DNA of 64,000 nucleotides from Octopus vulgaris (Eukaryota), in contig OX597818.1 in the NCBI GenBank assembly GCA_951406725.2, positions 54,312,001 through 54,376,000 of the forward strand, in the 5' to 3' direction. The notes beneath the pieces were generated by a model, which saw only the letters and a list, made by a program, of their open reading frames with translations, did not search any database and had not been told where the DNA came from. Position numbers and translations under genes: made by a program. This document shows positions 8,065-64,000 of this stretch, in pieces (positions within the stretch are counted from its first letter, which is position 1; every line of letters starts with the position of its first letter).

Positions 8065-9217
8065 CATATATGTACATGCATATATATATGCATATATATG
8101 TATATGTATATATATATACGTATATCTATATATATAAAGTTGATAATGTGTGTCTGTCTGTCTGTCTTTCTGCCTGTTCGTCTGCCTGTATGTGTGGAAA
8201 CTTAAAACTCGAGAACTACAACACCATTTTCATTCAAATTTTGCACGTTTTACTTAGGGCCAATGTAGTGTCATGGACCAAAACGTTCTCAAATTCTTGC
8301 GTAATGCGAGCCCAGAGCAATCTTCTATCTCTTCCACAGTTACAGTATTACGTGTTAAATGTGAGAGAATACATCTCTGTATTGTTCATATACACACACT
8401 CACAGACACACACACACACACACGCAAACAACATATGTAGGAAATTCTATCTGTGGGTGTGTTTGTTTGTGGAGTTGTTAGGTAACATATATCCTATATC
8501 ATTTTATCGATTTTATGAATCATGTGAGCAGCACTCATGTCTGGAAACCTCATGACTTACGTAGATTGTTGAAAAAATCGATAATAGGTTTCCTGGAAGG
8601 GATCCCTATATCTACTACATATAATTAAAATATATTATTTAAACCCCCAAGGGAAATAACCTAGCACCTGCATTTACAATTGTCATTTTTTAGCAAAGCG
8701 ATGAATATGTGATTCTCACGATCAGTGGACCTAATTCTGCATTTCACTACCTACAGTTTTGAACTGCTAAACCTTACTATTGCAGTTTCTTGATTTGAAT
8801 CTTAAACCTTAAAGACTTCATTCATACATTTATATACATACATACTCTTTTGCGCGTATATATACTACATTTATATATTAGCTTTAATAAATTAGCCTTG
8901 ATAAAGTTAACCTTTAAAATGCCACGGCGAGTAAGAGTACGAGTGGGTACTTGTACTTCACGAGCTGCTCTAATGCGACAACGATGATCTCAAGTAAGTC
9001 TCTGATTCATTGTTTGATATTTACTAAATCAAACAATTATTCTTCATCTATTCTACTTCAATATCTAAACAGTTAACAGCCGAAATCTGCGATGAGGGAT
9101 CAGTATCTGACTGAAGAATGAAGGCTTGAATGACCCGTTTGTCTTTTTGTTCGTCTCTTCGTGTATTTCACGTTATTTATTTATATAAAGGTCTATTATA
9201 TATATATATATATATAT

Positions 9218-12200
9218 TTTCAACAATTGAGGGTAAAATTAATTAATTATTAATCAATTTCACCAAGTGTTCAGTATGCAAAGGGACCATTTAAGGCGAA
9301 TTCAAATTATTACATTATATAAAAGGGCTTAGTAAAATAAATTACTTCGCCGCATACTGAACTCATTAGAAATAGCAGCTAAAAAACTTTTTTAAAGCTA
9401 TTTCTAATACTTAAAGAAAATCTCTCTCATATATAGCGTTTGCCTAATTCAACTCACAAAAGTTTGGGGTAAGGACATTAAAAAATCAAATGCTAAGGTT
9501 ATTTGAGTACGTACGTTTCAAGATTAGTCAAAACAACACTTCTATCTTCAGCTCAGAAATTCCTTGGTTTGGATTTGGAAACACTGAAAGTAAGAACATA
9601 CCCTTTCGAAGATTCGCTCGTTACTAACAGTGCCAACAAACCCAAAATAAGCAAGTGAAGAATTCCTGTCCTCCCCTTTCCACCAGCGTGGGTTAAAATC
9701 ATCAAACGCTATGCTTATTTCGGTAAAATCCGAAGCATTAATTAGAGGGAGATTAATTATAATTTCAACAATTGAGGGTAAAATTAATTAATTATTAATC
9801 AATTTCACCAAGTGTTCAGTATGCAAAGGGACCATTTAAGGCGAATTCAAATTATTACATTATATAAAAGGGCTTAGTAAAATAAATTACTTCGCCGCAT
9901 ACTGAACTCATTAGAAATAGCAGCTAAAAAAACTTTTTTAAAGCTATTTCTAATACTTAAAGAAAATCTCTCTCATATATAGCGTTTGCCTAATTCAACT
10001 CACAAAAGTTTGGGGGTAAGGACATTAAAAAATCAAATGCTAAGGTTATTTGAGTACGTACGTTTCAAGATTAGTCAAAACAACACTTCTATCTTCAGCT
10101 CAGAAATTCCTTGGTTTGGATTTGGAAACACTGAAAGTAAGAACATACCCTTTCGAAGATTCGCTCGTTACTAACAGTGCCAACAAACCCAAAATAAGCA
10201 AGTGAAGAATTCCTGTCCTCCCCTTTCCACCAGCGTGGGTTAAAATCATCAAACGCTATGCTTATTTCGGTAAAATCCGAAGCATTAATTAGAGGGAGAT
10301 TAATTATAATTTCAACAATTGAGGGTAAAATTAATTAATTATTAATCAATTTCACCAAGTGTTCAGTATGCAAAGGGACCATTTAAGGCGAATTCAAATT
10401 ATTACATTATATAAAAGGGCTTAGTAAAATAAATTACTTCGCCGCATACTGAACTCATTAGAAATAGCAGCTAAAAAACTTTTTTAAAGCTATTTCTAAT
10501 ACTTAAAGAAAATCTCTCTCATATATAGCGTTTGCCTAATTCAACTCACAAAAGTTTGGGGGTAAGGACATTAAAAAATCAAATGCTAAGGTTATTTGAG
10601 TACGTACGTTTCAAGATTAGTCAAAACAACACTTCTATCTTCAGCTCAGAAATTCCTTGGTTTGGATTTGGAAACACTGAAAGTAAGAACATACCCTTTC
10701 GAAGATTCGCTCGTTACTAACAGTGCCAACAAACCCAAAATAAGCAAGTGAAGAATTTCTGTCCTCCCCTTTCCACCAGCGTGGGTTAAAATCATCAAAC
10801 GCTATGCTTATTTCGGTAAAATCCGAAGCATTAATTAGAGGGAGATTAATTATAATTTCAACAATTGAGGGTAAAATTAATTAATTATTAATCAATTTCA
10901 CCAAGTGTTCAGTATGCAAAGGGACCATTTAAGGCGAATTCAAATTATTACATTATATAAAAGGGCTTAGTAAAATAAATTACTTCGCCGCATACTGAAC
11001 TCATTCTGAGCGAACGCATTCTTACTTTCAGTGTTTCCAAATCCAAACCAAGGAAGAGCTGAAGATAGTGTTGTTTTGACTAATCTTGAAACGTACGTAC
11101 TCAAATAACCTTAGCATTTGATTTTTTAATGTCCTTACCCCCAAACTTTTGTGAGTTGAATTAGGCAAACGCTATATATGAGAGAGATTTTCTTTAAGTA
11201 TTAGAAATAGCTTTAAAAAAGTTTTTTAGCTGCTATTTCTAATGAGTTCAGTATGCGGCGAAGTAATTTATTTTACTAAGCCCTTTTATATAATGTAATA
11301 ATTTGAATTCGCCTTAAATGGTCCCTTTGCATACTGAACACTTGGTGAAATTGATTAATAATTAATTAATTTTACCCTCAATTGTTGAAATTATAATTAA
11401 TCTCCCTCTAATTAATGCTTCGGATTTTACCGAAATAAGCATAGCGTTTGATGATTTTAACCCACGCTGGTGGAAAGGGGAGGACAGAATTCTTCACTTG
11501 CTTATTTTGGGTTTGTTGGCACTGTTAGTAACGAGCGAATCTTCGAAAGGGTATGTTCTTACTTTCAGTGTTTCCAAATCCAAACCAAGGAATTTCTGAG
11601 CTGAAGATAGAAGTGTTGTTTTGACTAATCTTGAAACGTACGTACTCAAATAACCTTAGCATTTGATTTTTTAATGTCCTTACCCCAAACTTTTGTGAGT
11701 TGAATTAGGCAAACGCTATATATGAGAGAGATTTTCTTTAAGTATTAGAAATAGCTTTAAAAAAGTTTTTTAGCTGCTATTTCTAATGAGTTCAGTATGC
11801 GGCGAAGTAATTTATTTTACTAAGCCCTTTTATATAATGTAATAATTTGAATTCGCCTTAAATGGTCCCTTTGCATACTGAACACTTGGTGAAATTGATT
11901 AATAATTAATTAATTTTACCCTCAATTGTTGAAATTATAATTAATCTCCCTCTAATTAATGCTTCGGATTTTACCGAAATAAGCATAGCGTTTGATGATT
12001 TTAACCCACGCTGGTGGAAAGGGGAGGACAGAAATTCTTCACTTGCTTATTTTGGGTTTGTTGGCACTGTTAGTAACGAGCGAATCTTCGAAAGGGTATG
12101 TTCTTACTTTCAGTGTTTCCAAATCCAAACCAAGGAATTTCTGAGCTGAAGATAGAAGTGTTGTTTTGACTAATCTTGAAACGTACGTACTCAAATAACC

Positions 12201-12930
12201 TTAGCATTTGATTTTTTAATGTCCTTACCCCCAAACTTTTGTGAGTTGAATTAGGCAAACGCTATATATGAGAGAGATTTTCTTTAAGTATTAGAAATAG
12301 CTTTAAAAAAGTTTTTTAGCTGCTATTTCTAATGAGTTCAGTATGCGGCGAAGTAATTTATTTTACTAAGCCCTTTTATATAATGTAATAATTTGAATTC
12401 GCCTTAAATGGTCCCTTTGCATACTGAACACTTGGTGAAATTGATTAATAATTAATTAATTTTACCCTCAATTGTTGAAATTATAATTAATCTCCCTCTA
12501 ATTAATGCTTCGGATTTTACCGAAATAAGCATAGCGTTTGATGATTTTAACCCACGCTGGTGGAAAGGGGAGGACAGGAATTCTTCACTTGCTTATTTTG
12601 GGTTTGTTGGCACTGTTAGTAACGAGCGAATCTTCGAAAGGGTATGTTCTTACTTTCAGTGTTTCCAAATCCAAACCAAGGAATTTCTGAGCTGAAGATA
12701 GAAGTGTTGTTTTGACTAATCTTGAAACGTACGTACTCAAATAACCTTAGCATTTGATTTTTTAATGTCCTTACCCCCAAACTTTTGTGAGTTGAATTAG
12801 GCAAACGCTATATATGAGAGAGATTTTCTTTAAGTATTAGAAATAGCTTTAAAAAAGTTTTTTAGCTGCTATTTCTAATGAGTTCAGTATGCGGCGAAGT
12901 AATTTATTTTACTAAGCCCTTTTATATAAT
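9218..12930. repeat. ~546-bp tandem repeat array in two head-to-head arms (retrozyme-like), (TA)n at both ends
   Basis: Unit starts at 9221, 9766, 10313 and 10859. Orientation switches at ~11006, and inverted units run to 12930. Confidence 0.95.
11597..11648 (+). ncRNA. Type I hammerhead ribozyme motif (one per 546-bp unit)
   Basis: tgag-CTGAAGA-[t-aga..agt..act..tct-t]-GAAA-cgtacg-TA-ctca. Copies on + at 11056-11102, 12142-12193 and 12688-12739; on - at 9504-9555, 10051-10102 and 10597-10648. Confidence 0.8.
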
Positions 12931-13147
12931 ATATATATATATATATATTGCTGTAATTAATTTAGACATTACATTAATAGACATTTTTCAACATCTCCAA
13001 ATAACTAAATGCTGGCAAAGAATGCCGGCTTTTCAATTAATATTGATTACACTTTGAATGCCCATAAATCCAATAATTCTGCATTTTTCCAGTAAAACAT
13101 TTTCAATGGCTGTAGATAAATTTTTGATTCCAGAACCTATTTAATAA

Positions 13148-14084: not shown

Positions 14085-15013
14085 GGCCCGAAATTTTGGG
14101 GGAGGGGGCCAGTCGATTACATCGATCATAATGCATAATTGGTGCGTAATTTATCGACCCCGAAAGGATGAAAGGCAAAGTTAACCTCGGTGGAATTTGA
14201 ACTCAGAATATAAAGACAGACGAAATACCTATTTCTTTACTACCCACAAGGGACTAAACACAGAGAGGACAAACAAAGACAAGCAAACGGATTAAGTCGA
14301 CTACATCGACCCCAGTGCATAACTGGTACTTAATTTATCGACCCCGAAAGGATGAAAGGCAAAGTTGACCTCGGTGGAATTTGAACTCAGAATATAAAGA
14401 CAGACGAAATACCTATTTCTTTACTACCCACAAGGGACTAAACACAGAGAGGACAAACAAAGACAAGCAAACGGATTAAGTCGACTACATCGACCCCAGT
14501 GCATAACTGGTACTTAATTTATCGACCCCGAAAGGATGAAAGGCAAAGTTAACCTCGGTGGAATTTGAACTCAGAATATAAAGACAGACGAAATACCTAT
14601 TTCTTTACTGCCCACAAGGGGCTAAACATAAAGGGGACAAACAAAGACAAGCAAACGGATTAAGTCGACTACATCGACCCCAGTGCATAACTGGTACTTA
14701 ATTTATCGACCCCGAAAGGATGAAAGGCAAAGTTGACCTCGGTGGAATTTGAACTCAGAATATAAAGACAGACGAAATACCTATTTCTTTACTACCCACA
14801 AGGGGCTAAACACAGAAGGGACAAACATAGACAAGCAAACGGATTAAGTCGACTACATCGACCCCAGTGCATAACTGGTACTTAATTTATCGACCCCGAA
14901 AGGATGAAAGGCAAAGTCGACCTCGGCAGAATTTGAACTCAGAACGTAGCGGCAAACAAAATACCGCTAAGCATTTCGCCCGGCGTGCTAACGTTTCTGC
15001 CAGCTCGCCGCCT
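14085..15013 (-). mobile_element. tRNA-headed SINE with a 184-bp internal segment tandemly amplified
   Basis: Head ggcggcgagctggcagaa...gagttcaaattc. The motif atcgaccccgaaagg recurs at 14153, 14337, 14521, 14705 and 14889. Relatives lie at 21820-22240. Confidence 0.8.
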
Positions 15014-15733: not shown

Positions 15734-15880
15734 GCACACACACACACACACACAACACACATATATATGTATGTATGTATCTATCTGCCTACTGTGTGTG
15801 TGCTTCAAAATGTGACCGCGTGTGTACCGTTGGCGATTTTTTCCTTCGTCTTCCCTTCTCTGGATCTTTCCTTTTTCTAT

Positions 15881-15915
15881 GTCTCTGACGAAGAGCTCCG
15901 CCCGAAACGTAAAAC
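15881..15915 (+). ncRNA. Minimal hammerhead motif in a short Penelope-terminus-like element
   Basis: gtct-CTGACGA-a-gagc-tcc-gccc-GAAA-cg-TA-aaac. The related copy at 53675-53710 has a perfect stem II (gagc/gctc). Confidence 0.6.
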
Positions 15916-21670: not shown

Positions 21671-22302
21671 AGGATAAATTGTTAAAAACGTAAGTGCATT
21701 AGTGCTGAGTGGGTGCGAGTACTGAACAAATGTCCATGTAGCAGTCAAACAACTTTGAAATAACAGCCAACTGTATTAAGAAGTGAAAGATCATATAAAG
21801 TTATATAGTCCTAGTACAAATAAAGACAGACGAAATACCTATTTCTTTACTACCCACAAGAGGCTAAACACAGAGAGAGGACAAACAAGGACAGACAAGC
21901 GGATTAAGTCGATTCTATCGACCCCAGTGCGTAACTGATACTTAATTTATCGACCCCGAAAGGATGAAAGGCAAAGTTGACCTTGGCGGAATTTGAACTC
22001 AGGACGTAACGGCAGACGAAATATGGCTGCGCATTTCGCCCGGCGCGCTAACGTTTCTGCCAGCTCAACGCCTTAGTACGTTAAAAATTGTTTTTTCACA
22101 CTAGGCACAAGGCTTGGAATTTTTGGGGGAATAGGCCAGTTGATTTGATCGACCCCAGTACGCAACTGGTACTTATTTTATCGACCTCGAAAGGATGAAA
22201 GGCAAAGTCGACCTCGGCGAAATTTGAACTCAGAACGTAAAGAGTACATAAAAAAAATATTACAATGAAACAAAGTAAGTTCTCACAACAGAATATGTGT
22301 GT

Positions 22303-37078: not shown

Positions 37079-37573
37079 TTCTGCATGGTTGATACATAAC
37101 GAGGTCTCGGTCATCGTACCGCTTGTTACTTTTGATTACCAGTACTGATATAACAATCAAACAACTCTGAAATAACAGCCAGTCGTGTAGAGAGATGATA
37201 GACTAGATAAAGCAACGCAGTTCTAATACAAATAAGGAGACAGGATGTTCATGGTTAAAAGGTATTTTATTATAAGTACACTACATAACAAGAAAATAAA
37301 TGTTTATACTGTGTTACTGTGTAGGTTTCTGATCCGTTATGTGATCTGCAGCGTTACTTTCTCCTGTGGTACTCGAACTTTGCGAAATCGTGCTTAGAAC
37401 TAGACTTCGGCGCTCAACAGGAGAATGGTAGAAGGTTTACAAACGACAGGCTGCATGACTCACAGCCACATAATTCTGAATGAATTTTAAAGTATATATA
37501 AAAGCATTATAATGAAACGAAATAACAAGTTCTCGTAACAAAACCCCAAACTGGAAAGTAGGAATTTCAAGGT

Positions 37574-55750: not shown

Positions 55751-57046
55751 TATGGTGCATAAATACAGTGAGCGTTGCCAGATAAAAGTATGTGAATGCA
55801 GTCGTTTTGTTGGCTTGTGTTGACGGGTAGTCGGTGGCCACCTCGCTGCACTGGAGTGTTTTCTTTGAATGTTTTCTCTTCTTCCTTTTGCAGGTGCAAA
55901 TAAGTACTGTCTCGATTCCTAGGATTCACGTGTCGGGTTAGCCGATTCCACAGCGTTTCAGTAACCGAAATCGCAACATTCGTCCTCAAAAGGATTCAAG
56001 TCCGTCACAGGGTTACTCATTTACGACCGAGTGGACTGACACAATAAGAAATGAAGTGTTTTTCTCAGTAACACCACACACTGCCCGGTCCTAGAATCGA
56101 AACCATGATTTTGAACTCGTGGGTACAACTAACTAACCGCTTGGCCACGCACTCCCGCTCCAGTCTTTATATCTATCAAAGATTCTCTTTTATCTCGAGT
56201 TTTTCTAAAGATCGTATATCCACTGTATTCTCTGTTTTTACTTTTGAATTGATCAAGATTTCAGAGGAAACATTCCACGGTTACAATTTGGTCGAAGAGA
56301 TTCCTGTCAAGAACTGAGGAATGGCTCTTAATTTCCAAGCCCTGCATGAATTTATCCTGGGACATTATCTTAGCAGTGTAAATAGAAACATTATTTCCAA
56401 TCTTGTATTAGTCAGCAATGATATGTTGCGCAGCTGTTGTTAAATTTATCGCTAGTTCTTGAGCATGGTTCTTCAGCTTTGCAATTTTAACAAAGTCTTA
56501 GTCATCGTATTATTGGCTATCTTTGACTCTTGAATCGTAGCTCAATCTGCGCCTGCAACATTTGGCTGAAAAATTCTTTACTTTGCAGCCGGCGTAAGGT
56601 GTTGTTAATTAGGTAAATCAATCGGAAAAAAAGTGAAATTGTTAACAGGTTATAAACGTAAGTGCAGTAGTGGTGACTGGTGAGAAACTGAAGAAATGTC
56701 GATGTAGCATTCAAACAACTCTGAAATAACAGCCAACCGTGTTAAGAATTGATTGACCGTATAAAGCGATGTAGTCTTAATAAAAATAACGAAAAATGAT
56801 TTTCATGGTTACAATGTAATTTTATTATAAGTCCAATGGACAACAATTGAACAAGGAAATAATAGTTTCTGCCATTAATGTTAAGAAGTAAAATCAAATT
56901 CCCAATGTTATCAGTTCTCTGTCATATGTTACTGAATAAATTTTGATGAACATAAAAACAATATTACAATCAAACAAAATAAGTTCTCAGAAAAGAACTG
57001 GAAACGGAGAAGTAGAAATATCAAGGTTATATATATATATGTGTGT

Positions 57047-57771: not shown

Positions 57772-57832
<61 letters not shown>

Positions 57833-57838
<6 letters not shown>

Positions 57839-58838
57839 GGTAAATAATTTTCCTGTGGTTTTTCATGTAACCAACAATTATTTACCGGTAAATTTCGGTA
57901 TGTAAATACGACAAAATAATTGTCAAGACCTTTGTAAGATTCAGTATATAGTAAAGAAAAATAAGTTGGCTAGCAGCAAGCTGTTTCGCCTCATACCGAA
58001 GGAATTAGAAATGGCAGTCAAAGACCGTTTTTTCAATTTCTATAAGTGGAGATTCCAAAAACGAAGGCCCTTGCGGCTCACATACACAAAACCGGAGTGG
58101 CAAATATACGAATTCAGTCACTTACCGTTAATAGCGAACACGGTGTTTCTGGATCACAAACATATAAAAAAAGGGGAGTTTGAATTCCGTCATCAGCGCT
58201 ATATTCGTTAGCTTTATCAAATGCCACCAGCCCTCACTTCTGACCCAGCGACATCAGATAGTGGGGGGAAGTGCGTAGATGTTAAAACCAAGTAATGACT
58301 GGGAACGTAAATTTTCCCTCCAAAATTCTGCCATGCGCGCCTTCTGGGTAATCGTAATGGAATGAGGAATCCACATGGTAATACAATAAAAATGGTAAAT
58401 AATTTTCCTGTGGTTTTTCATGTAACCAACAATTATTTACCGGTAAATTTCGGTATGTAAATACGACAAAATAATTGTCAAGACCTTTGTAAGGTTCAGT
58501 ATATAGTAAAGAAAAATAAGTTGGCTAGCAGCAAGCTGTTTCGCCTCATACCGAAGGAATTAGAAATGGCAGTCAAAGACCGTTTTTTCAATTTCTATAA
58601 GTGGAGATTCCAAAAACGAAGGCCCTTGCGGCTCACATACACAAAACCGGAGTGGCAAATATACGAATTCAGTCACTTACCGTTAATAGCGAACACGGTG
58701 TTTCTAGATCACAAACATATAAAAAAAGGGGAGTTTGAATTCCGTCATCAGCGCTATATTCGTTAGCTTTATCAAATGCCACCAGCCCTCACTTCTGACC
58801 CAGCGACATCAGATAGTGGGGGGAAGTGCGTAGATGTT
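57833..58838 (-). mobile_element. 1.8 tandem copies of a 555-bp retrozyme-like unit
   Basis: Unit starts at 57833 and 58388; abuts (TA)n; absent from the paralogous site at 63264-63333. Confidence 0.92.
58131..58202 (-). ncRNA. Type I hammerhead, canonical core
   Basis: atagcg-CTGATGA-c-gga..caaac...gtttg..tcc-a-GAAA-cac-c-gtg-TT-cgctat; second copy at 58686-58757. Confidence 0.85.
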
Positions 58839-58873
58839 GGGGAGATTGGGATAACGTATATTAAACGAAGATT

Positions 58874-59739
58874 TTACGTGTAAAAGTGTAGTTCTTTTGT
58901 TAACATGCTCACAATGCAAGGAACCTGTTTCATTCCATTCCAAGACGAATCGCTGGCATTAGACTCATATTCATAGGCAACGCTACTATTTACTGAAAGC
59001 ATTAATTGTTGCAGTTCAAGTTTGTCTCCGTCTCTTTCCAAAATGTGGGCTAACGACTGAATAAACCACGATCCATTAGTGGAACTTCTCCAGGAGTAAA
59101 ATCCAGGGACAGTGGAATAAGCCAGAAGAAAGTCGGCCCAAACTGGTACTTTGTGTGATGTGACATTTTGATATTTGTCTCTAACAGCTTGAGCATCATG
59201 CATAATTACGCCACTGTCCAGTTTTGTTCCCCGACAGGCTTGTATGAAGAATAGTTTTGGCTTACCTATTAAGCTCGGACATCTATCAGGAAGCAACATC
59301 TCTACTAAAGTATCCAGATTTACTTTGCCATCCGTGCCATAAATCTGGTTATCGTCTTCACCGTGAGTTAATATAACACAAACGAAGCAATTATACTTCG
59401 TATAGTCCATCCGGATATATCCGTAAAGATATGCGTCATCGCTTTCACTGATAAATTCTTGCGTTCGATCACCTTAAAATGCAATGACTTCAAAGCCTTT
59501 TTAATTGCTGATGCATCTCTGTCGGATCCTTCTCGATTAGAATTTTCTATCGATTTGTCAAACTTTTCGTTATTTATTATTAAAGCCAGGTTCTCTTTGT
59601 TACGATCCATGTCATATCTGGCATTTACAGATTCGCTATTTTTTTCAACAGACTCCATTTCAACATCTTGAGGTTGTGAATCGGGATCTCTCTCATTAAA
59701 AAATATACCTTCAACACGTTGTGCATCTACGTAGTCCAT
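58874..59739 (-). pseudogene. Caspase-3/7-like, copy 3, 1-nt frameshift at ~59412
   Basis: ORFs 59368-59739 and 58874-59410 together give a full caspase. One base is missing relative to copies 1, 2 and 4 (a sequencing error is possible). Confidence 0.8.
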
Positions 59740-60601: not shown

Positions 60602-62141
<1,540 letters not shown>

Positions 62142-62460
62142 GCAAATAAGAAAATGAAGGCGATTATTATTATTATTATTATCTTTTTTATTATACCAAT
62201 AAAAAAGATGAGGACAAAATAACGAAAAAAGATGTTCATGTTTACAATGTAATTTTATTATAAGTCCAATGGACAACAATTGAACAAGGAAATAATAGTT
62301 TCTGCCATTAATATTAAGAAGTAAAATCAAATTACCAATGTTTTCAGTTCTCTGTCATATGTTACTGAATAAATTTTGATGAACATAAAAACAATATTAC
62401 AATCAAACAAAATAAGTTCTCAGAAAAGAACTGAAAACGGAGAAGTAGAAATATCAAGGT

Positions 62461-63261: not shown

Positions 63262-63328
<67 letters not shown>

Positions 63329-63367
63329 TTGAGGGGAGATTGGGATAACGTATATTAAACGAAGATT

Positions 63368-64000
63368 TTACGTGTAAAAGTGTAGTTCTTTTGTTAACAT
63401 GCTCACAATGCAAGGAACCTGTTTCATTCCATTCCAAGACGAATCGCTGGCATTAGACTCATATTCATAGGCAACGCTACTATTTACTGAAAGCATTAAT
63501 TGTTGCAGTTCAAGTTTGTCTCCGTCTCTTTCCAAAATGTGGGCTAACGACTGAATAAACCACGATCCATTAGTGGAACTTCTCCAGGAGTAAAATCCAG
63601 GGACAGTGGAATAAGCCAGAAGAAAGTCGGCCCAAACTGGTACTTTGTGTGATGTGACATTTTGATATTTGTCTCTAACAGCTTGAGCATCATGCATAAT
63701 TACGCCACTGTCCAGTTTTGTTCCCCGACAGGCTTGTATGAAGAATAGTTTTGGCTTACCTATTAAGCTCGGACATCTATCAGGAAGCAACATCTCTACT
63801 AAAGTATCCAGACTTACTTTGCCATCAGTGCCATAAATCTGGTTATCGTCTTCACCGTGAGTTAATATAACACAAACGAAGCAATTATGCTTCGCATGGT
63901 TATCCTTGGATATATCCGTGAAGATTTGCGTCATCTGTTTCACTGACAAATTCTTGCGGACGATCACCTTAAAATGCAATGACTTCAAAGCCTTTTTAAT
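63368..64000 (-). CDS. Caspase-3/7-like, copy 4 (5' part outside the window)
   Basis: Open frame with LTHG, QACRG, IMHD|A and YSWRS..GSWF. Confidence 0.9.
   Translation of the reverse strand: MKKALKSLHFKVIVRKNLSVKQMTQIFTDISKDNHAKHNCFVCVILTHGEDDNQIYGTDGKVSLDTLVEMLLPDRCPSLIGKPKLFFIQACRGTKLDSGVIMHDAQAVRDKYQNVTSHKVPVWADFLLAYSTVPGFYSWRSSTNGSWFIQSLAHILERDGDKLELQQLMLSVNSSVAYEYESNASDSSWNGMKQVPCIVSMLTKELHFYT

Follow-up and report, generated by a model that had tools for sequence, protein, structure and literature searches.

The window, a 64,000-nt stretch of Octopus vulgaris DNA, carries a caspase-3/7-like gene (copy 3) as a single coding exon on the minus strand (58874-59739; stop codon at 58874-58876). 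Sequence comparison identified an intact sister paralogue on the same strand, copy 4 (63368-64000, continuing past the end of the window to 64234), from which the caspase identity was assigned by matches to Pfam PF00656 (Peptidase_C14) and to caspase-3 as the best matches in the PDB. The reading frame of copy 3 is interrupted by a 1-nt deletion near 59411/59412 and stops after ~123 codons, before the catalytic residues. We compared four runs at this site. Contigs of X1 and X4 (two samples from two studies) span the deletion without difference, so the frameshift is not an assembly slip; X3 had no cover, and X7 gave a probable paralogue. This in-frame contig of organism B (X7 record 30; 6 differences, 1 gap) was considered as an allele that might date the frameshift, but its difference count equals that of copy 5; therefore, it is probably a paralogue and leaves the frameshift undated. 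Contig depths were too crude to derive zygosity.

Both genes belong to a cluster of 22 intronless caspase-3/7-like copies (C5:54146359-54521224), 15 intact and 7 broken. The original prediction described copy 3 as the frameshifted one; the deletion is real and copy 3 is the sole broken copy in the window, but in the cluster it is one of seven. Another broken caspase copy (L094, C5:54255000-54259600) is truncated near codon 227, right at a (TA)n tract. Across copies 3-6, the coding regions differ by 6-10% and the flanks by 2-3%. There are more amino-acid changes than silent ones, and the pattern suggests diversifying selection or mosaic conversion.

The insertion behind the copy-3 stop codon

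A 1,006-bp insertion (57833-58838, minus strand) lies behind copy 3 and comprises 1.8 tandem units of a non-coding 555-bp hammerhead repeat, separated from the stop codon by a 35-nt host spacer (58839-58873, minus). The unit length of 555 bp and the distance of ~35 bp were both as originally predicted, whereas the array itself is longer than the single unit length given for it. The proximal unit is complete (58284-58838, minus, 555 bp), and the distal one is partial (57833-58283, minus, 451 bp, unit positions 1-451), stopping 7 nt short of a common 3’ end of the repeat family at position 458. The two units differ at 2 of 451 positions, and the sense strand of the insert contains no stop-free stretch longer than 80 aa. 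At its 3’ end the element is joined to a (TA)n tract (57775-57832), delimited by tandem repeat finder (TRF), and its 5’ end abuts unique host DNA with a loss of 8 host bases: the 8 nt TGAATTGA of copy 4, arranged there as (TA)n-TGAATTGA-GGGGAG, are absent from copy 3. No target duplication is visible at the copy-3 insert in comparison with copy 4, in agreement with the earlier claim, although TA units could mask one on the 3’ side.

The corresponding site of copy 4 is empty (63264-63332, minus) and shows the 8 host bases followed by (TA)n, just as had been claimed for the duplicate locus. In copies 4-6 the (TA)n tract lies 43 nt past the stop codon. Altogether ten paralogues have the empty site, and eight of these carry a (TA)5+ tract that lies 43-50 nt past the point where the protein match stops. 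Since ten paralogues are empty and copy 4 resembles copy 3 on both sides of the insertion site, the insertion is, most simply, younger than the duplication that produced copies 3 and 4, as first proposed. It is very improbable that the insertion is an assembly artefact. No contig among the pieces listed for the four runs bridges the 58838/58839 junction or contains the base at 58706, and such contigs drop rare variants; against an artefact, collinear host sequence continues on either side of the insert, its 3’ junction bears the TA signature of the repeat family, and both units share a base that none of 84 other copies has.

The flanks of the sister copies 3 and 4 are ~2% apart, but the region next to the insert (58839-59394) differs at only 2 of 556 positions, where the rate in the flanks would predict 12.5 differences (P=0.0003). 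This near-identity could stem from gene conversion or from purifying selection. Because the two copies are so similar beside the insert, the insertion and the frameshift are both young and close in time. An attempt to order the two lesions by private changes failed (2-3 of 1,006 positions in the insert versus 5 of 1,048 copy-3-only changes in the flanks).

The first AATAAA or ATTAAA past the copy-3 stop is the AATAAA at 56821-56826 (minus), 2,048 nt downstream, and conservation of the AATAAA-containing block, present in 13 of the 22 cluster copies, points to its use as a poly(A) signal. This signal and those at 37266-37271 and 62254-62259 are all located where they had been reported. From this arrangement we infer that the element lies within the transcribed 3’ UTR of copy 3.

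Hammerhead motifs and the 555-bp repeat family

Two type I hammerhead motifs are present on the mRNA strand of the insert, with CUGAUGA cores starting at 58751 and 58196. The proximal motif (58686-58757, minus) has its predicted cut between 58692 and 58691, and the distal, family-typical motif (58131-58202, minus) between 58137 and 58136. These cuts fall 182 and 737 nt after the stop codon and precede the AATAAA at 56821-56826, matching the earlier estimates of ~180 and ~740 nt. In order, the proximal motif contains a 6-bp stem I, CUGAUGA, an extra C, a long stem II, an extra A, GAAA, a palindromic stem III and the triplet GUU. The catalytic core letters are intact. Proximal stem II opens with a G-U pair replacing the closing G-C, and the U at 58706 is shared by one of the 110 other aligned copies. 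Cutting at both sites would release a predicted 555-nt monomer (58137-58691, minus) that carries locus-specific bases at 58296 and 58276, found in 0 of 78 and 0 of 84 other copies, respectively.

We scored 102 motifs of the family for their core letters, which were CUGAAGA in 48, CUGAUGA in 31, CCGAUGA in 21 and CUGACGA in 2. The CCGAUGA subfamily, with core U4 changed to C, is widespread (for example at L027, L030 and L040), and its spread suggests either that the change is tolerated or that cleavage is unneeded for mobility. Position 17 is U in 89 motifs and C in 13; the copy-3 triplet GUU is an NUH triplet and is listed as cleavable, GUC and GUA being fastest (PMC3138052). Stem III is self-complementary in 99 of the 102 motifs, in four variants, one of which has a two-sided change. 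In all 102 motifs stem II is flanked on either side by a single unpaired base, the pattern having been scored with one base per side, and these flanking bases are A.A in 53 and C.A in 49.

The motifs have CUGANGA, GAAA and stems I-III in type I order, but they depart from type I in that the closing pair of stem II is not directly before G12 and an extra A precedes GAAA in all 102. In the parts of the Penelope and retrozyme hammerhead descriptions available, this extra A is absent; the variants of Lunse 2017 may include it. It may be a tolerated variant, because a second hammerhead family in the window has U.U at the same place. Rfam returned no hammerhead match to the motifs at the gathering threshold or at E<=10, a result that is uninformative for such an architecture. 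By constrained folding in three contexts, the monomer fold lay 4.0-9.0 kcal/mol above the free ensemble and the dimer fold 6.3-12.5 kcal/mol above it, values calculated with neither tertiary terms nor a known-active control, and the folding z-scores were -0.06 and -0.48. The palindromic stem III gave a duplex of -7.4 kcal/mol. The copy-3 hammerheads are probably of the weak, dimer-dependent type, for which self-cleavage is plausible at a low level.

A genome-wide search of the 2.8-Gb genome with the exact 5’ core pattern gave 260 exact matches and 0 for the control. The unit search, in which 40 of 998 candidate places were scored, gave at least 146 matches, most of them with 88-99% identity. 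For the analysis of ends we assembled 62 loci, consisting of 22 non-overlapping loci of the 30 from the unit search and 40 among the first 100 core-pattern loci; the set includes the copy-3 locus, and three loci on C13 are near-duplicates. A TA-rich flank was found at 69 of 86 outer 3’ ends and 20 of 36 outer 5’ ends. The outer 3’ ends concentrate at unit positions 339 (37/86) and 458 (16/86), and 27 of the 62 loci contain both strands; in many copies it is the 5’ part that is inverted. The 555-bp family is thus young, has Penelope-type ends and is mostly joined to (TA)n. It shows the tandem and inverted insertions, fixed 3’ ends and microsatellite targets of Penelope-mobilised repeats, and also the marks of non-LTR retrozymes, a class that the repeat fits by its sequence: non-coding units in tandem, a type I hammerhead in every unit, and a palindromic stem III permitting dimers. 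At one locus (L076, C3:178132000-178135000), the flank of a 555-bp family copy resembles the 3’ end of a 562-bp family with (TA)n after it, and one element may thus be nested in the other.

No RT or GIY-YIG ORF occurs in or beside any of the 62 copies, nor joined to one in 40 kb of C13, and a search with a single RT fragment as query found no autonomous Penelope partner linked to the family within the same scope. An RT fragment on C13, which we take from its motifs to be Penelope-type, was rejected as this partner: it lies 4-5 kb from the arrays, is unjoined to them and has no Pfam match.

The window holds further repeats. Hammerhead arrays of a related 546/562-bp family are located at 60602-62020 (plus) and at 9213-12933 (both strands, including an inverted half); their eight motifs are type I, with a GUA site, a palindromic stem III and U.U beside stem II. 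A lone short CUGACGA...CGAAAC motif at 15873-15915 (plus) resembles a minimal hammerhead. Finally, a 184-bp unit forms 4.5 tandem copies at 14111-14965, with related single copies at 21820-22243.

The insertion and the loss of copy 3

The insert is a recent insertion of a repeat of the non-LTR retrozyme type, likely pasted into (TA)n by a Penelope-like enzyme. We consider it likely that it is a bystander tolerated by a redundant gene copy and did not bring about the loss of copy 3. The landing site is explained because the family inserts at (TA)n genome-wide and (TA)n follows the copy-3 stop. In the proposed sequence of events, a Penelope-like protein would insert the repeat by target-primed reverse transcription at the (TA)n behind the stop, copy 3 would be transcribed through the array, and weak, dimer-dependent self-cleavage would serve the RNA cycle of the element itself. 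The insert would persist since copy 3 was redundant or dead beforehand. If copy 3 is transcribed, some messages may be cut, but the protein they encode is truncated anyway, and the cluster still has 15 intact paralogues. On this reading the locus would be a mobile-element insertion of the ordinary kind, within a gene cluster that evolves by birth and death. Several points speak against this reading: the catalytic core letters are intact, the two motifs stand 555 nt apart in an arrangement permitting dimer cleavage, both lesions are young and near in time, and neither the 62 loci nor 40 kb of C13 showed an autonomous Penelope linked to the family. In addition, the sole downstream sense hammerhead among the 22 copies sits at a broken copy, albeit with n=1.

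This last point was evaluated by a relaxed hammerhead scan over ~3.5 kb after each of the 22 copies, which detected sense motifs at copy 3 alone. A sense hammerhead therefore follows 1 of 7 broken and 0 of 15 intact copies (Fisher p=0.32, a comparison with n=1 and almost no power). The original prediction went further and held that the ribozyme silenced or regulates this caspase and may have led to its pseudogenisation; this role is unsupported, as the six other broken copies decayed with no such hammerhead downstream. In that scenario, the insertion came first, copy 3 was silenced because the double hammerhead removed its poly(A) tail, and the frameshift followed. We regard this order of events as unlikely, even though the insert is in sense orientation, both sites are upstream of the first AATAAA, the stem III duplex is dimer-competent, both lesions are recent, and the Clec2d ribozyme lowers reporter output by 80% (PMC2950038). 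The breakage of six other copies weighs against it, as do the non-canonical core neighbours, the weakened proximal stem II and the low activity reported for Penelope-type motifs; moreover, a redundant copy can decay with no prior silencing. A bolder version is possible though doubtful: transcription from the caspase promoter would yield an RNA with two hammerheads, which would cleave in vivo as a dimer, so that the message loses its tail and a 555-nt circle is set free. A retrozyme would then be lowering the expression of its own host gene by means of a hammerhead variant that has one more base ahead of GAAA. If this were true, the near-identical copy 4 would be a built-in control for the knockdown of copy 3 by a promoter-borrowing retrozyme.

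The insert could also lower copy-3 mRNA by other routes, namely decay triggered by a 3’ UTR intron made with a donor in the insert, an early weak poly(A) signal, or spreading repeat-directed silencing. A consensus-like candidate splice donor, GTAAGT (58674-58680, minus), lies 11 nt past the proximal predicted cut and recurs at 58125, and it follows 146 of 147 scanned motif copies, a count in which overlapping loci enter repeatedly. Weak variant poly(A) signals (AATATA at 58862 and 58760, GATAAA at 58773) precede the first predicted cut. Copy 3 already has a premature stop, however, and any lowering of its mRNA is therefore moot for protein output; we judge this group of routes improbable.

There is also only a small chance that copy 3 is barely or not transcribed and that the array lies outside its real UTR. 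The duplication junction at ~62165 and the second hammerhead array, at 60602-62020, leave ~860 bp of native upstream sequence; the duplication block ends near 62164, and copy 3 is without the upstream sequence beyond 60603 that copies 4 and 5 retain. What argues against this is that 400-490 bp upstream of the ATG, conserved with the distant copies 1-2 and likely the core promoter region, are intact. Upstream of copy 3, from 60603, there are ~2.5 units of the 562-bp family with ~82 bp of host DNA missing, and a single 174-bp piece of the same family lies upstream of copy 4 (C5:54377073-54377478). The copy-3 upstream array is best read as a second insertion or an extension at the same site, after the duplication.

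The value of the locus, with the insert taken as a likely bystander, is that it offers a matched natural test of whether a ribozyme cuts host messages. Copy 3 with the insert and copy 4 without it form a pair with 554 of 556 adjacent bases identical, and the locus-specific bases make cut ends or a circle traceable. The depletion of retrozyme and Penelope hammerheads from genes suggests that such cutting of host messages is possible.

Comparison with known hammerhead systems

The following comparisons refer to the available portions of the cited papers. First, the 555-bp family resembles the non-LTR retrozymes in its non-coding head-to-tail units with one type I hammerhead each, its dispersed young copies and its dimer-type stem III. 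It differs from them in the unit length of 555 bp, compared with 220-350 nt (PMC7229834, 10.64898/2026.07.22.740005), in the extra base that flanks stem II on either side, and in the mostly GUU cut site. Axolotl retrozyme dimers cut far better than monomers (PMC7229834), and in Xenopus exonic retrozymes are rare (0.24-0.32%) and mostly in 3’ UTRs (10.64898/2026.07.22.740005). Non-LTR retrozymes have been argued to be non-autonomous Penelope derivatives (10.64898/2026.07.22.740005).

Second, the motifs share with the Penelope pLTR hammerheads an unpaired base after A9, a G-C closing pair, a long stem II and a short palindromic stem III; the unpaired base, the long stem II and the palindromic stem III are described features of Penelope motifs, which cleave poorly in vitro even as dimers (PMC4209133). 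The family also has tandem and inverted insertions, two preferred 3’ ends and (TA)n targets, as Penelope-like elements have tandem and inverted structures, a preference for (TA)n and two internal start sites (PMC8557442, PMC11167929). Unlike the pLTRs, it has no RT or GIY-YIG ORF in the 62 copies and carries the additional A before GAAA in 102/102 motifs. The anole Penelope hammerhead is reported to need protein to cleave; insertion in vitro proceeds without it, and RNA-seq revealed no ends at its cut (PMC11167929). Recently active Penelope families have been reported in an octopus genome (PMC13282606).

Third, the rodent Clec2 ribozymes had been invoked as a parallel, and the shared position stands: the predicted copy-3 cut lies on the mRNA strand between the stop codon and the poly(A) signal (PMC2950038, PMC6155905, PMC6765202). 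The parallel is otherwise loose: the Clec2 ribozyme, a type III motif of discontinuous structure, is conserved in several mammals and has a measured reporter effect, whereas the copy-3 motif is type I, predicted from its sequence, and belongs to a recent mobile-element insertion in 1 of 22 paralogues, a frameshifted one. Among the papers listed in our literature search, none deals with this locus or with the 555-bp family. This class of element is known; what is new is a member placed behind the stop codon of a frameshifted caspase copy.
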